Shown: in pieces, positions 31,561-36,400 of the stretch | Layout: the number at the start of each line of letters is the position of its first letter | Position numbering within the stretch: the stretch's first letter is position 1 | Origin: Candidatus Poribacteria bacterium | Lineage (GTDB): Bacteria > Abyssobacteria > SURF-5 | Length of the DNA stretch: 64,000 bases | Assembly: GCA_016215705.1 (NCBI GenBank) | Contig: JACRIR010000130.1 | Coordinates: forward strand, 1,456 to 65,455 | Direction of reading: 5' to 3' | The notes under the pieces: model-generated | What the model was told of the DNA's origin: nothing | The model's database searches: none | The model's input: the letters and a program-made list of their open reading frames with translations, nothing else | Made by a program: the position numbers and the translations under genes

Positions 31561-34500
31561 ATGAGCAAAATCACATGGCTGCATCTGTCTGATTTCCATT
31601 TCCGGACAGAAGTGAACCCCAACACAAGCAAGGTTGAGGATTTCAACAGCGAAATTGTCCTTTCGAGTCTGCTTGATGACATCAAGACCTATCCAGCCGA
31701 GAATGGGTTCAAGATCGACTTCATAATTATCACGGGCGATATCGCTTTTTCCGGACAGCAACACGAATATCGCAAAGCAGAGGAATTTTTGGATGAACTG
31801 CTCGGTGCTCTCAAACTCGGAAAGGACCGTCTTTTTGTCGTGCCGGGCAATCATGATATCGATAGAAGCAAGATCAAGAATTTCCTGAAACCCACTTTGG
31901 ACAGCGTTGATAATATCAACGGTTTCTTAATGGATAGTGAGGCGAAGGCCTTTGTATTTGGAAAGCTTCATTGCTACAAGGACTTTGTAAATAGATATTT
32001 AAAAAAGAACCTGAAATTTGACCATGAAAACAACTATTTCTGGACGAAGATTCTATCGGTTCGGGGAACAAAGGTCGGGATACTTGGCTTGAACTCGGCA
32101 TGGAATTCTTGTGGAGACAAAGACGAACGACAACTTCTGATTGGCGAAAAGCAAGTGGCCGATGCGCTGAAGCAGGCAGAAGACGCAGATTTGAGAATCG
32201 CGGCGTTTCATCATCCTTTTGATTGGCTGAGAACCGATGACAGGAAGGTGGTTAAGCGGGACCTGGCCGAGAAATGCCATTTTGTCTTGCACGGACACCT
32301 GCATGAACCCGACTATAGTCAGGAAATTATGGCGGATTCTCGTCTAGTGGTGACCATTCCCGCCGGCGCGTGCTATGACAAACGCCCGTATAGGAATTCA
32401 TACAACTATGTGAACTTCGACACAGATGCAAGAAAGGGACAGCTTCGTCTGAGAGCTTATTGTGATAAGTTGAAAGGCTGGGTGGCAGACAACGAAGTAT
32501 CGAAGAACGCCGAGGATGGTATATGCAACATTGACTTCAACATACGGACAATCAAAGAGCGACATACGCCCCGAAAGCGAGGGAAGCTCGCCGTCTCCTT
32601 GGAAATCCCTACCCAATACAGAAACTGGGTCGACACTCAGTGCGAGATACTGGATATCAAGAAACTGGTGGAAAGCAGAGACACGAAGTTAATCAACCTG
32701 GAACTTCCGCAGATATTCATACCGCTTTACACAAGCTCCCCTATTGGCAAAAGAAGGGGTAGAAGGCCTCGCCTTGACACCGACGAACAACGAGAACCAG
32801 TCGATATTGAGAAACTGGTGACTTCAAGTGATTACCTGATCATAAGGGGCCAGGCGGGTTCGGGCAAAACGACACTTATGAAGCATATGGCTTACTCCAT
32901 TATTCACGGGGGCGGCAAGTATGGACTCACCGGCTATTTGCCGATTCTGATATTCTTGAGAGACCTGCCCAAATCCGTTACGCAGAACACAGGATCGGTT
33001 CCGGGTATGGACGCAGCGGAGAAGATTCTGACTGAGTACTTTCGAAGTAAGTGTAAGTGCGAAGCACTGAGCATCGAGTTGATCGAGGCGTTTTGTCGCG
33101 AAGGCAAAGCCATATTCCTTGTTGACGGTCTCGATGAAGTCCAGCCGAAGCTTCGGGAATTCATCACTGATTCTCTGGCGGATTTCCGAAGCCCATTCAA
33201 CGCCACAACGAGTAAGATGGTCTTCTCAGGCAGACCGCACGGTATTGATGAGGCGGTTAACAGCAAGTTCCCAGGCAAGTGTGTGGATATTAACTCGCTG
33301 AATGCGGAGCAGGTGAGAGATTTCATCGAAAAATGGCTCAGGTGGGACAAGGAGTTGAAAGACAGGGCAAAGACTCCGGAAGACATGTTCGGCGAAATAT
33401 ACGGCCATCAAAGCGCTGAAGAGTTGATAAGCACGCCCCTTATGTTGACTGCCGCCTGTATTCTCTACCATTACGATAGGAAGCTGCCGGAACAGAGGGC
33501 CGAATTGTACGAGAGAATTATCAACAACCTGATATACAAGCGTTTTGAAAATCCCGTTGAAGCGCTGGACCTGTTGATGAACATAGCCTATAGGACTCAT
33601 AGCGATAAGAAAAAAGGGTTCAGCAGGAGATTTGCGCTCGACCTCATGACGCCCGAACGTCAGAAGAGAAACGACGAAACTGAACGGCAATATGATATAA
33701 GAGTAGGTGCGGAGTTTGCTCACATTGAGCAAGACTGCGGATTGCTCAGGCTCGATAAGGGAGAATACAGCTTCTGGCACTTGAGCTTTCAAGAGTTCCT
33801 GGCCGCGAGAGAGATAGCCACCCACAAGCGGGACTTCACAGGGGCCATTCAAGAATACTGGGACGATGATTGGTTCAACGAAACGCTTCGTTTGTTTATC
33901 GGTCATTTGAGCAACACGCATCCGGCCGAGGCCAACGGCATAGTGGAAGACCAACTGAGAAAAGAAGATCGATCACCTTTCAGGCATTGGCGGCAGGCGG
34001 CCAAATCGTTGCTCGATATCTACCCCGCCATGAGATACAAGCAAGTCGTCGCTAAGGCCCAAGAGTGCTTGTCGAACATAATCAAGAAAGCAGAAGACCC
34101 GAAGGTCCTGGCCGACGCCGGTGAAACGCTCGGCTGGCTGGGAGATACACGGAATCTGAAGGAGTTTGTGGAAATTCAAGGGGGCCAATACGAGTTGGAG
34201 GGACTAGGTAAAACAACTATTAAACCGTTTGAGATGGCCAAATATCCAGTAACCAATCAGTGGTATGAAGAGTTTATCAAGGCAAATGGATATAAGGAAA
34301 AGGAGTTCTGGACACCGAAAGGATGGGAATGGCTGAACGAGGGGGAATGCCAGGAGCCTTTCTACTGGCATGATCGAGCCTGGAAATGCCCGAACTCGCC
34401 GGTTGTCGGTGTCAGTTGGTATGAAGCGGAAGCTTTCTGTCGCTGGCTCACTGCAAGAAAGGATGGTTGCTCATACAGGCTGCCGACGGAACAGGAATGG

Positions 34501-34830
34501 CAGGCGGCCGCAGCCGGTAAAGAAGGGCGGGAGTATCCGTGGAAGGGCCGTTGGCGTAAGAATTGCTGCAATACAGATGAGTCCGGTATCGGCAAGACGT
34601 CAGCGGTCGGGATTTTTGCCAAAGGCACAACGCCGGAAGGTGTGGCCGATTTAGCCGGAAATGTTTGGGAGTGGACCGATAGTTGGTATGATAAGGACAA
34701 GGACGCAAAGGTGCTGCGGGGCGGCTCGTGGGGCGACGGCCGTATCTTTGCCCGGTGTGCGTTCCGTAACTGGTTCAACAGGGCCAACCGGAACTACGTC
34801 GTGGGTTTCCGCTGTGCTAGGATCAAATAA
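31561..34830 (+). CDS. DGR variable target protein: metallophosphoesterase (calcineurin-like) + NACHT/STAND P-loop NTPase + C-terminal FGE-sulfatase/C-type-lectin-fold domain
   Basis: N-terminus has MPP motifs (HLSDFHF, ITGDIAFSG, VPGNHDID, AAFHHPF, LHGHLHEP). Middle has Walker A GQAGSGKTTL and NACHT-type Walker B IFLVDGLDEV. C-terminus has FGE/SUMF motifs (YPVTNQWY, GVSWYEAEAFCRWL, RLPTEQEWQ, AGNVWEWT, RGGSW, GFRCAR). The last 112 nt form the VR of the downstream DGR. Confidence 0.85.
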   Translation: MSKITWLHLSDFHFRTEVNPNTSKVEDFNSEIVLSSLLDDIKTYPAENGFKIDFIIITGDIAFSGQQHEYRKAEEFLDELLGALKLGKDRLFVVPGNHDIDRSKIKNFLKPTLDSVDNINGFLMDSEAKAFVFGKLHCYKDFVNRYLKKNLKFDHENNYFWTKILSVRGTKVGILGLNSAWNSCGDKDERQLLIGEKQVADALKQAEDADLRIAAFHHPFDWLRTDDRKVVKRDLAEKCHFVLHGHLHEPDYSQEIMADSRLVVTIPAGACYDKRPYRNSYNYVNFDTDARKGQLRLRAYCDKLKGWVADNEVSKNAEDGICNIDFNIRTIKERHTPRKRGKLAVSLEIPTQYRNWVDTQCEILDIKKLVESRDTKLINLELPQIFIPLYTSSPIGKRRGRRPRLDTDEQREPVDIEKLVTSSDYLIIRGQAGSGKTTLMKHMAYSIIHGGGKYGLTGYLPILIFLRDLPKSVTQNTGSVPGMDAAEKILTEYFRSKCKCEALSIELIEAFCREGKAIFLVDGLDEVQPKLREFITDSLADFRSPFNATTSKMVFSGRPHGIDEAVNSKFPGKCVDINSLNAEQVRDFIEKWLRWDKELKDRAKTPEDMFGEIYGHQSAEELISTPLMLTAACILYHYDRKLPEQRAELYERIINNLIYKRFENPVEALDLLMNIAYRTHSDKKKGFSRRFALDLMTPERQKRNDETERQYDIRVGAEFAHIEQDCGLLRLDKGEYSFWHLSFQEFLAAREIATHKRDFTGAIQEYWDDDWFNETLRLFIGHLSNTHPAEANGIVEDQLRKEDRSPFRHWRQAAKSLLDIYPAMRYKQVVAKAQECLSNIIKKAEDPKVLADAGETLGWLGDTRNLKEFVEIQGGQYELEGLGKTTIKPFEMAKYPVTNQWYEEFIKANGYKEKEFWTPKGWEWLNEGECQEPFYWHDRAWKCPNSPVVGVSWYEAEAFCRWLTARKDGCSYRLPTEQEWQAAAAGKEGREYPWKGRWRKNCCNTDESGIGKTSAVGIFAKGTTPEGVADLAGNVWEWTDSWYDKDKDAKVLRGGSWGDGRIFARCAFRNWFNRANRNYVVGFRCARIK
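34711..34822 (+). other. DGR variable region (VR)
   Basis: 112-bp match to the TR at 36289-36400. All about 18 mismatches sit at positions that are adenine in the TR (AAC to GGC/GAC/ATC/TTC/GCC/TAC/GTC, AAT to TTT, AGG to TGG). Confidence 0.9.
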
Positions 34831-34861
34831 TTACGCTTTGCCCTTTTACGCTTTTACCCTT

Positions 34862-35232: not shown

Positions 35233-36323
35233 AAACGCACAAAAATCTATACAGCGGAATCACCTCCTTTGATAACCTGCTTTTGGCGGCAAGGAAAGCG
35301 CAAAGGGGCAAGAGATTCAAAGAGTCTACTGCGGTTTTCAATCTGAATCTCGAAAGAGAGCTTTTGTGTATCCAGAAGGAACTGCAGGAGATGACCTACC
35401 GGCATGGCGGGTATCAAGATTTCTACGTCTACGATCCGAAACGGAGGCTGATCAGCGCGGCTCCATACCGGGATCGGATTGTGCATCATGCCCTTTGCAA
35501 CGTCATAGAACCGATATTTGATCGCATCTTTATTTACGACACTTACGCCTGTCGAAAACGAAAAGGTGTCCATGCAGCCGTCGATAGATATAACGAATAT
35601 GCCCGCAAGTACACATATGTGCTGAAATGCGATATTCGGAAATATTTTCAGAGTGTTGATCACGAGATACTTCTGGAAATGATCTCCCGAAAGATTGCAT
35701 GCCCACAAACAATGTGGTTGATCACGAAAATCATCGCTTCCCGGGACGATAAGAGCCATGTCTCATACTTCGAGAATGATACCCTTTTCACTCCATTCGA
35801 GCGGAAAAGAGGAATCCCGATCGGGAATCTCACCAGCCAATTTTTTGCCAACGTGTATTTGAATGGTTTTGATCATTTCGTAAAGGAGATTCTTGGACAG
35901 CCGTACATTCGCTATGTTGACGATTTCGTTGTGTTCGGGAATTCAAAAGGACGACTGCATGAAGTCAACGAAAAAATACAGGCTTATCTTTCCTCGTTGC
36001 GCTTGAACATCCACGAGCGAAAATGCCGGATATACAGAGTAAAGGACGGTATTACGTTTCTCGGCTATCGTATTTTCCCAACCCATCGGTTACTCAAGAA
36101 AGACAACGTGCTGAGGATGCGGCGAAGGTTGAAGAAACTCAGCCGTAAATACAGCTCGGGCATGGTTTCGCTTCCGGCAATCAAGCTGAGGATACAAAGT
36201 TGGATTGGCCATGCCGGTCATGCCGACACATTTCGGTTGAGAGCAAGAATGCTTGCGGATGCAGTCTTTCAAAGGGGTGAGACCAGAGGTGCTGCGGGGC
36301 GGCTCGTGGAACAACAACCGTAA
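35229..36323 (+). CDS. DGR reverse transcriptase
   Basis: RT motifs including YVDDFVVFG (YxDD) and the DGR-specific IGNLTSQ motif ([16 protein letters not shown]) that replaces the retroviral QGxxxSP. GTG start overlaps the avd stop. Confidence 0.88.
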
Positions 36324-36400
36324 CAATGCCCGGTGTGCGAACCGTAACAGGAACAACAGGAACAACCGGAACAACAACGTGGGTTTCCGCTGTGCTAGGA
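36289..36400 (+). other. DGR template repeat (TR)
   Basis: Adenine-rich (many AAC codons: GTGG AAC AAC AAC CGT AAC AAT ...) 112-bp cognate of the VR. Overlaps the 3' end of the RT ORF and is followed by several perfect hairpins (36424-36450, 36489-36510). Confidence 0.9.

Follow-up and report, generated by a model that had tools for sequence, protein, structure and literature searches.

The 64,000-nt stretch of DNA analyzed here (the window; positions 1,456 to 65,455 of the forward strand of contig JACRIR010000130.1, GenBank assembly GCA_016215705.1, Candidatus Poribacteria bacterium) carries a complete and, as its components support, apparently intact diversity-generating retroelement (DGR), in which a target gene, an Avd gene, a reverse transcriptase (RT) gene and a template repeat (TR) follow each other in this order. 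We consider it probable that this is a chromosomal, nonphage DGR of the Avd type that diversifies a single gene, and that the C-type lectin (CLec) domain encoded by the diversified part would be the sensor of an immune switch resembling the NOD-like receptors (NLRs). An immune-sensor function, which we argue from related systems, is plausible and the best explanation of the locus. All coordinates below are window positions, and features lie on the + strand unless stated otherwise.

Within the window, the repeat finder reported one long direct repeat (34706–34822/36284–36400), which was trimmed to 114 nt on each side. This yields a variable repeat (VR; 34709–34822), which covers codons 1050–1087 of 1089 of the target open reading frame (ORF; 31561–34830, 1,089 aa, identified from the ORF list and its Pfam domains), and a TR (36287–36400), which contains 33 adenines. 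The two copies are 84% identical, and their 18 mismatches fall without exception on TR adenines (18/18; hypergeometric P = 2.6e-12), the restriction that the original prediction had named as the check that could refute it; nonadenine mismatches number zero across the 114-nt repeat. All 18 are also located at codon position 1 or 2 of the target frame, and 11 VR codons now differ from the TR. Read in this frame, the TR holds 14 AAY and three AGG codons, none of them mutable to a stop, and these 17 codons permit ~10^17.9 protein variants. The last 23 nt of the VR (34800–34822) are identical to the TR. Among 34 homologues of the target, the codons that contain TR adenines show a mean column entropy of 2.92 bits vs 1.71 bits for the remaining CLec domain (P 1e-6); these are the most variable CLec columns, and the RGG...R...GFR scaffold is invariant. 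A second VR-like copy does not occur in the 64-kb window, by which a second DGR target within it is ruled out.

Both protein components of the retroelement are encoded by full-length ORFs. Avd (34894–35232; 112 aa from its ATG) matches Pfam bAvd (E 1.4e-17, 64.6 bits vs a cutoff of 40) and the NCBIfam equivalog DivGenRetAVD (106.2 bits vs a cutoff of 80). A longer ORF with a TTG start begins at 34861; the ATG start also appears in the independent gene call of L169, a 1,981-nt Logan assembly contig of SRR12113407 that is 100% identical to 34799–36779. The RT (35229–36323; 364 aa, GTG start) matches RVT_1 (E 2.1e-28) and retains the catalytic motif YVDD at residue 229, as well as IGNLTSQ at residue 198, the motif by which it had originally been recognized as a DGR enzyme. 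This motif-4 signature, [I/L]GxxxSQ, is DGR specific. The RT start overlaps the Avd stop by 4 nt, and its last 12 codons overlap the TR. Its identity is 43 to 63% to the RTs of six aligned DGR loci and at most 66% to metagenomic relatives; most catalytic residues are invariant, and the motif residues are invariant or conserved in seven related DGR RTs. The ORF list, the profile matches and the repeat alignment together place all four DGR parts within a few bases of their predicted positions.

The target is a three-part protein, as had been proposed, and the profile searches for Metallophos, NACHT, FGE-sulfatase, RVT_1 and Avd all returned matches. A calcineurin-like metallophosphoesterase (MPP) domain, the presumed effector, occupies 31579–32538 (residues ~7–326; Pfam Metallophos at 7–250, E 2e-9). 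It is followed by a NACHT-type STAND (signal transduction ATPases with numerous domains) NTPase at 32833–33342 (residues 425–594; E 2.3e-10, 41 bits vs a cutoff of 26.7), by a helical region, and by the FGE-sulfatase or CLec-fold domain that holds the VR (34177–34821, residues 873–1087; Pfam E 2.7e-47). An AlphaFold model built with the 34 homologues (mean pLDDT 86) agrees with this architecture: Foldseek finds NLRC4, NOD2 and NLRP3 as neighbors of the full model (E 1e-12 to 1e-10) and FGE folds of the EgtB/OvsA/ToxD type as neighbors of its C terminus. The MPP motifs D11, H13, G59-D60, G96-N97-H98-D99, H217-H218 and G245-H246-x-H248 are invariant or nearly so in the 34 homologues; Walker A residues G430, G433, G435 and K436 and residues D522, D525 and E526 of the Walker B region are invariant, and T438 is near-invariant. 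No 19-aa window exceeds a Kyte-Doolittle value of 1.11 and the N terminus is unlike a signal peptide, so that the protein is predicted to be cytoplasmic. An identical protein is on record at NCBI (P0001, from a Candidatus Poribacteria metagenome-assembled genome [MAG]) under the name “SUMF1/EgtB/PvdO family nonheme iron enzyme.” This name reflects the fold alone, since every enzyme equivalog cutoff is missed by a wide margin (EgtB, 121.5 vs 360; SenA, 103.4 vs 420; OvoA N-terminal, 80.4 vs 400; PvdO, 46.2 vs 500). The VR overlies the region that we take to correspond to the FGE active site.

As to the presumed effector, the isolated MPP was modeled from a seven-row alignment (model m868df26d6746, pLDDT 78). 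Its Foldseek neighbors are, in order, the YydB model 9a6c_B and then Rv0805, Lmo2642, GpdQ, SMPDL3B/acid sphingomyelinase (ASMase) and 5′-nucleotidases, and a sequence search of the PDB ranks the relatives in the same order. Mre11 and SbcD are absent from the top 50 fold neighbors. By this similarity in fold and sequence, with Mre11/SbcD missing from the top 50, the MPP would act as a phosphodiesterase on nucleotides or small phosphodiesters and less likely as a nuclease; a nuclease reading, raised by the PADLOC label PDLC00736 (“Endonuclease”) and a weak SbcD match, was rated less likely on the same grounds. The closest fold by far is chain B of PDB 9a6c, an integrative model of YYDD-YYDB (E 7e-23, TM score 0.78 on the query, 21% identity). 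This match hints that the target, DS-8 and DS-9 may share an effector family with Bacillus subtilis YydB, whose partner is YydD.

DS-8 also provides the link to immunity. According to the relevant passages of its description (DeWeirdt et al. 2025, DefensePredictor, 10.1101/2025.01.08.631726), this Escherichia coli system consists of one MPP-NACHT protein, and the protection from phage that it confers depends on the catalytic residues of the MPP as well as on the ATPase residue of the NACHT. The NCBIfam model DS8_antiphage and the PADLOC model PDC-S60 match the N-terminal domain of our target at ~1e-52 (PDC-S60, E 2.7e-52), and DS8_antiphage matches the isolated MPP at E 2.5e-48 (164.6 bits). 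A weak but collinear match of DS8_antiphage extends to the NACHT (E 5e-5, 21 bits), such that the MPP aligns with model positions 1–275 and part of the NACHT with 353–528. The two proteins thus have MPP and NACHT in the same order, and the SMPDL3/ASMase group, which is noted for DS-8 in those passages (10.1101/2025.01.08.631726), is among the fold neighbors of the target MPP. They differ in the C-terminal half, where the model (~530–994) is unmatched and the target has its helical region and DGR-diversified CLec. None of the PADLOC Avs or bNACHT models matched the target beyond the P-loop. We regard the MPP-NACHT collinearity with DS-8, read from sequence, as the best argument so far that the putative effector-switch module has an immune role. 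The passages of the DS-8 paper on phosphoesterase and STAND domains mention no DGR, its text not having been searched for DGR or retroelement, and a statement linking the MPP-NACHT/DS-8 module to DGR-associated targets was not found in the literature examined.

On the template side, the DGR is accompanied by a structured RNA that extends across the 3′ end of the TR and the following spacer (36391–36563). The ~170 nt from the TR 3′ end fold far better than shuffled sequences (minimum free energy z = −3.4), and the hand-drawn structure contains four helices. P1 is a duplex between TR and spacer (36398–36406/36461–36469) whose spacer strand is a conserved AAGUCC motif, followed by a conserved adenosine, A36470. 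P2 is a 9-bp stem-loop just 3′ of the TR (36427–36435/36442–36450), P3 (36485–36492/36497–36504) precedes an A-rich run, and P4 lies at 36519–36530/36550–36561. A further duplex of 12 bp (36273–36284/36471–36482; −23.3 kcal/mol), which is followed by a stem-loop and the A-rich run, has its upstream strand just 5′ of the TR and resembles the so-called cPRT stop. Over 30 loci this stop-like duplex has a median of −18.0 kcal/mol vs −11.5 kcal/mol for mismatched locus pairs (Mann-Whitney P 1.5e-9). P1 and the stop-like duplex bracket exactly the VR-homologous stretch.

The structure is shared by related loci. A covariance model, R1, seeded with three close sequences including that of the window and with the hand-drawn structure, returned 61 matches at E<0.01 in 100 sources, one of them in the window and 60 at further loci (e.g., L087 4613–4782 and L089 7166–7329). 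All matches are on the + strand, which is the orientation of the RT-seeded loci, and where compared they lie at or just after the TR; the best score belongs to the window locus, itself one of the three seeds. In the resulting alignment, 92% of paired cells are paired vs 58% in shuffles, compensatory changes occur in 41/41 pairs, and the covariation score is 0.63 vs 0.07 to 0.12 with partners slid by 1 to 3 columns, counts that were made on an alignment fitted to the hand-drawn structure and are somewhat inflated. When plain MAFFT alignments of the sequence 3′ of the TR were folded with RNAalifold, only the last hairpin came out, the other helices being misaligned. Rfam gave nothing at the gathering threshold over the whole window and has no family for the TR RNA; by E-value, a search of 36200–36850 gave only chance miRNA-like matches on a palindrome at 36751–36799. 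For the DGR of phage BPP-1, a template:primer duplex, a cPRT stop (duplex, stem-loop and adenosines) and an Avd-binding stem-loop have been solved, and they are predicted in 207/278 DGRs (Handa et al., 10.1101/2023.10.23.563531). The layout of the TR RNA matches this primer duplex and stop duplex and includes a stem-loop like the Avd-binding one, with functions that we assign by analogy. The RNA looks like this clade’s version of the BPP-1 “Sp” RNA.

Two DNA elements follow the VR. Between the stop codon and a GC-rich hairpin, four CTTT motifs are repeated in tandem with a period of 7 to 8 nt (34835–34863); this array, which reads GCTTTGC CCTTTTAC GCTTTTAC CCTTTGG, is present after the VR and absent after the TR. 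In the 60 nt 3′ of 65 related VRs, CTTT occurs 2.4 times per 60 nt vs 0.25 times in random windows (an enrichment of about tenfold), with spacing peaks at 8 and 7 nt, and at least three CTTT follow 55% of these VRs vs 0.9% of random windows. Such arrays are found after the VRs of L087, L082, L107, L113, L120, L131, L162, L165, L168 and others, including VRs without avd downstream, so the array goes with the VR. As a calibration, four-CTTT clusters within 32 nt also start elsewhere in the window, at 2455, 10685, 10693 and 10710 on the + strand and at 55003, 20051 and 3786 on the minus strand. We found no published description of the array, which may be a clade-specific target-recognition signal.

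Directly 3′ of the array, 41 nt from the VR end, the DNA fold centroid contains a 7-bp hairpin with a GAA loop, GGCCGCC-GAA-GGCGGCC (34864–34880). Perfect GC hairpins of at least 6 bp occur within 90 nt after 28/56 related VRs, with ~1 expected from shuffles. Since a hairpin 3′ of the VR is required for retrohoming of the BPP-1 DGR (Guo et al. 2011, PMC3240598), we consider 34864–34880 a candidate target-recognition hairpin or cruciform. The window and BPP-1 share Avd, RT, the TR/VR pair, adenine mutagenesis and a GC hairpin 3′ of the VR (PMC3240598). They differ in gene order, which is target-avd-RT-TR here vs mtd-avd-TR-brt in BPP-1, so that the 5′ strand of the stop duplex here is part of the RT gene and not of avd. 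The hairpin itself has a GAA triloop (C-GAA-G) instead of the 4-nt GRNA loop and stands 41 nt from the VR, outside the 4 to 34 bp reported for phage DGRs, with the CTTT array in between, which BPP-1 does not have. The target, too, is different, a predicted cytoplasmic NLR-like protein here and a tail fiber in BPP-1. With regard to the initiation of mutagenic homing (IMH) element, the 23-nt identical VR end and the 7-bp GC hairpin are thus candidate target-site elements only; the triloop is not GRNA, its distance is 41 nt, and the IMH/IMH* difference is not definable from sequence alone.

Relatives of the target are widespread. By our own count from the match table, 92/120 best-matching protein clusters have the Metallophos + NACHT + FGE-sulfatase architecture, and hosts of the three-domain relatives include Desulfobacterales, Chloroflexota, anammox Planctomycetota, Pseudomonadota, Phycisphaeraceae, Acidobacteriota and others. 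The domains recombine: the NACHT-CLec core occurs with other N termini (ORC/Cdc6-like + TrmB in a Poribacteria protein with 63% identity across the core, DUF4062 and TCAD9), some relatives have TIR or caspase domains added before the MPP-NACHT-CLec core, and the same MPP is fused to nSTAND1 + TPR (P0101) and to WD40 (P0103). Because MPP, NACHT-CLec core and N termini are swapped in this way, we read the protein as following an effector-switch-sensor logic. P0003 is a paralogue-like Poribacteria protein. In P0087, P0097, P0102, P0105 and P0107, the MPP is joined directly to FGE-sulfatase without a NACHT (one of them also with CHAT); given these fusions, an NTPase-less effector-sensor version of the family evidently exists at the level of predicted proteins. 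A full-length profile scan of the genome collection returned mostly NACHT-CLec or CLec-only proteins, with the MPP only in L001, L002, L010 and L051.

Of nine loci with usable context, seven have a DGR or its remnants (the window, L087, L086, L051, L085, L082 and L088). In the first four, an RT accompanies TR/VR pairs with an adenine bias. Such pairs are also present in L085 and L082, where the VR of the MPP-NACHT-CLec gene has diverged and a TR stands beside this gene together with the structured RNA; no RT or Avd was found within 10 kb on either side of L082 9422–9714 and L085 9648–9934, and in L082 18/25 VR/TR mismatches are at adenines and 7/25 elsewhere. Such orphan TR-RNA modules could either be served in trans by an RT from elsewhere in the genome or represent a decaying DGR. 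In L088, a decayed DGR, Avd and the structured RNA persist along with a truncated RT and a remnant of the TR, and no DGR parts were seen in the locus context of L081 and L001. A second target, KAP_NTPase + FGE-sulfatase, stands beside the MPP-NACHT-CLec gene in L081 (4623–6791), L085 (7515–9527) and L087 (970–3039); in L087 one TR is matched by both VRs, and the window has one target only. Among 80 metagenomic loci with RTs 46 to 66% identical to ours, the commonest layout is target-Avd-RT-TR with the TR overlapping the RT 3′ end. By tblastn, their targets gave CLec and occasional NACHT matches and no MPP match.

The locus is not a new kind of system. The original prediction suggested that the MPP-NACHT-FGE combination might be undescribed, which does not hold, since Kaur et al. 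2021 and Doré et al. 2024 had already described this kind of protein with a DGR; Kibby et al. and a 2026 STAND survey list its effector and sensor classes. The relevant parts of the comparative-genomic survey of Kaur et al. (PMC8195603) present STAND-NTPase-FGS proteins with TIR, DRHyd, calcineurin, caspase, trypsin (peptidases) or kinase domains as N-terminal effectors and an NTPase of the NACHT, MNS or nSTAND1 clade, KAP NTPase and AP-GTPase being alternatives. Genes for a DGR RT and its four-helix accessory protein often lie beside theirs, and the proteins are proposed there as analogues of the hypermutating receptors of adaptive immunity. Our target falls into the same effector/STAND/FGS class, and the KAP-NTPase-FGE second targets of its relatives fit that description as well; the Poribacteria locus, the MPP-NACHT-CLec family as such, the RNA elements and the DS-8 link are not treated in those parts of the survey. 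Among the targets analyzed by Doré et al. (PMC10907252), that of Thiohalocapsa PB-PSB1 DGR 7 combines vWA, Metallo (PF00149), NACHT and CLec. These authors found NACHT- and nSTAND1-CLec targets to be diversified in nature, with variable sites at codon positions 1 and 2, and read them as antigen sensors, while stating explicitly that the immune role of DGR-diversified NLR-like targets had not yet been put to experiment. The window target and that of PB-PSB1 have in common a DGR-diversified CLec fused to NACHT and variability at codon positions 1 and 2. In contrast to the latter, the window has a single compact target without vWA and without MoxR ternary context, in which the MPP is at the extreme N terminus and is the only candidate effector; the hosts studied by Doré et al. 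are multicellular, and the Poribacteria host is not known to be so. Doré et al. further term Metallo and NACHT “signal transduction domains,” not an effector plus a switch (PMC10907252). Calcineurin-like phosphoesterases are among the N-terminal effector classes of bNACHT proteins (Kibby et al.), and FGE-sulfatase-like domains are among the STAND sensor types of the 2026 survey in Nature, whose searched passages do not mention DGRs (PMC13581612). With the bNACHT and Avs proteins the target shares a tripartite effector-NACHT-sensor layout, with a NACHT above cutoff and both Walker motifs kept. To our knowledge, the sensors of bNACHT and Avs proteins tested so far are germline encoded, TPR-like or other, whereas that of the window is diversified by a DGR (“somatically”). 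In the paper library searched, none of the papers mentioning both Poribacteria and DGRs is about DGRs of Poribacteria.

The cassette is embedded in housekeeping genes. Upstream are the genes for pyruvate dehydrogenase (PDH) E1 alpha, E1 beta and E2 and an OsmC-like gene, and downstream a DsrE-like gene, an MFS transporter, a GNAT acetyltransferase and an HMGL-like synthase. Farther away follow glutamate synthase, PilT-like ATPases, a copper ATPase, pyruvate kinase, BshC and flagellar export and switch genes. The scanned ORFs of the 64-kb window include no phage, integrase, transposase or other defense genes. GC content is 0.45 to 0.50 in the cassette (31000–36500) vs 0.52 to 0.56 in the flanking housekeeping genes, which is compatible with horizontal acquisition and, because the cassette lies below its flanks, suggests an island of ~5.3 kb inserted between the PDH genes and the DsrE-like gene, with no integrase or transposase nearby. 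Between the DGR RNA and the next gene, 36751–36799 is an inverted repeat of 24 nt whose arms (CCGGCTTATTCGGGGACACCATGC/GCATGGCGTCCCCGAATAAGCGGG) are 92% complementary and enclose a loop of 1 nt; it may be a terminator or REP-like element at the cassette end. The positions 11475–13727 and 41302–52940 hold two PilT-like T2SSE ATPases and a flagellar export/switch cluster (Bac_export_1/FliR-like, FlhB, FlhA, an FlhF-like SRP54-type GTPase, an FlhG-like ParA/MinD-type ATPase, FliM, FliN and FliK), by gene content a motile-lifestyle set in a genome attributed to Candidatus Poribacteria.

Taken together, these elements suggest how the locus might work. An RNA that runs from the 3′ portion of the RT gene through the TR and into the spacer would fold into the conserved structure described above, in which, by analogy, the 9-bp stem-loop after the TR and the 3′ hairpins would hold the RT-Avd complex. 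The TR 3′ end would pair with AAGUCC ~65 nt downstream, A36470 would prime cDNA synthesis near 36397, and the 12-bp duplex 36273–36284/36471–36482 would halt it at the 5′ edge of the TR; both proposed cDNA limits coincide with the ends of VR/TR homology. Adenines would be miscopied during this synthesis, and the cDNA would replace the VR, guided by the identical 23-nt end, the GC hairpin and perhaps the CTTT array. In this way, 17 codons on a C-type lectin fold would be rewritten, for which we compute ~10^18 variants. That the variable residues of such folds lie on the binding face is established from Mtd and TvpA. At the protein level, following the NLR/Avs paradigm and DS-8, ligand binding by the variable CLec would release NACHT-driven oligomerization, and this in turn would activate the N-terminal metallophosphodiesterase, which is most like phosphodiesterases for nucleotides and small molecules. 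Molecules of an invader, e.g., phage proteins, would thereby be recognized and answered by abortive infection or nucleotide depletion, and the DGR would renew specificities upon escape. It is tempting to speculate further that the system works as a “somatic” receptor, in which the DGR continuously retargets the CLec of a DS-8-type abortive module for antibody-like recognition of phages, and that this clade uses the CTTT array to tell VR from TR; we hold this extended version only tentatively.

Several observations weigh against an active immune sensor. Ongoing diversification is without direct sign: a scan of metagenome contigs for other VR/TR variants, with the adenine positions set to N, gave 0 matches, and a second VR variant of the target is absent from a collection of 5.8 billion proteins, where its 90% cluster has one member. 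The sole hint comes from the contig L169, whose first base, 34799, is the last variable base of the VR and whose other end lies inside the 36751–36799 palindrome. Such a break is what VR heterogeneity would yield in a de Bruijn graph; a drop in coverage could also produce it, and the run may be the source sample of the MAG itself. A randomized intracellular sensor coupled to a toxic effector would pose a problem of self-reactivity. The likeness to DS-8 is strong for the MPP only, the whole protein scoring 179.9 bits vs a cutoff of 790 (NF053861), and because of this shortfall and the different C-terminal half, the target is by sequence a related module and not a DS-8 orthologue. Finally, the cassette has housekeeping neighbors (PDH complex, DsrE-like, MFS) and no defense island, and the inflation of the covariation counts noted above applies to the RNA.

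The housekeeping setting and the kinship of the MPP bear on whether the same DGR and tripartite switch might serve a purpose other than antiviral defense. The protein could sense self or kin, environmental or host molecules, for example in an allorecognition like that of the fungal NLR-like HET proteins or in the tuning of cyclic nucleotides (cNMPs) through a cNMP-phosphodiesterase output. The MPP neighbors are indeed class III cNMP phosphodiesterases (Rv0805, Icc, CpdA), GpdQ and SMPDL3-type enzymes, not nucleases, and no defense or mobile-element genes are among the flanking genes scanned. Doré et al. name kin recognition as another possible role of STAND proteins diversified by a DGR (PMC10907252), and the pertinent part of Vallota-Eastman et al. 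2020 frames cyanobacterial DGRs as tuning regulatory pathways (PMC7517822). However, DS-8, the closest studied relative of the MPP-NACHT module, is antiphage, relatives of the target carry the death and defense effectors TIR and caspase alongside or in place of the MPP, and those bacterial NACHT/STAND proteins that carry fused effectors have to date been connected with defense. We therefore regard a nonantiviral role as unlikely.

Alternatively, the DGR could be a fossil, once active and now inactive, with its VR frozen. Its relatives are found at every stage of decay, from L082 and L085 without an RT within 10 kb, and with nonadenine mismatches in L082, to the truncated RT of L088. In the window itself, however, Avd and RT are full-length with catalytic motifs, the repeat is free of nonadenine mismatches, all RNA helices are kept with the best R1 score (though from a seed sequence), the VR-side hairpin is intact, and the L169 contig of an independent assembly begins right at the last variable VR base, which together make a fossil quite improbable. 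The DGR might, lastly, belong to a phage or prophage and diversify a receptor-binding protein in the manner of BPP-1, for DGRs were first found in phages and FGE/CLec is the usual target fold there. Yet the 64-kb window offers no phage, integrase or transposase genes among its scanned ORFs and instead PDH, glutamate synthase, pyruvate kinase and flagellar export genes, and the target, by prediction a cytoplasmic protein, combines an enzymatic N terminus with a NACHT NTPase. This gene content effectively refutes a prophage origin, to which we give next to no credence.

If the extended reading of the cassette as a working “somatic” receptor is true, a single 5-kb locus with one target would give anticipatory phage recognition to a host that is not known to be multicellular. 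As the MPP-NACHT module is homologous to DS-8, for which a phage-defense assay in E. coli and point mutants exist, the immune question is experimentally approachable, and with one target, one VR, an intact Avd and RT and a full set of RNA and DNA cis elements, the locus is a compact test case. The BPP-1 DGR has already been reconstituted in E. coli (PMC12875486). The TR RNA could serve as an RNA family and as a finder of DGRs and their TRs, and the family data show how often such DGRs decay or may act in trans. More broadly, DGR-diversified NLR-like proteins are the nearest proposed bacterial counterpart of hypermutating antigen receptors.

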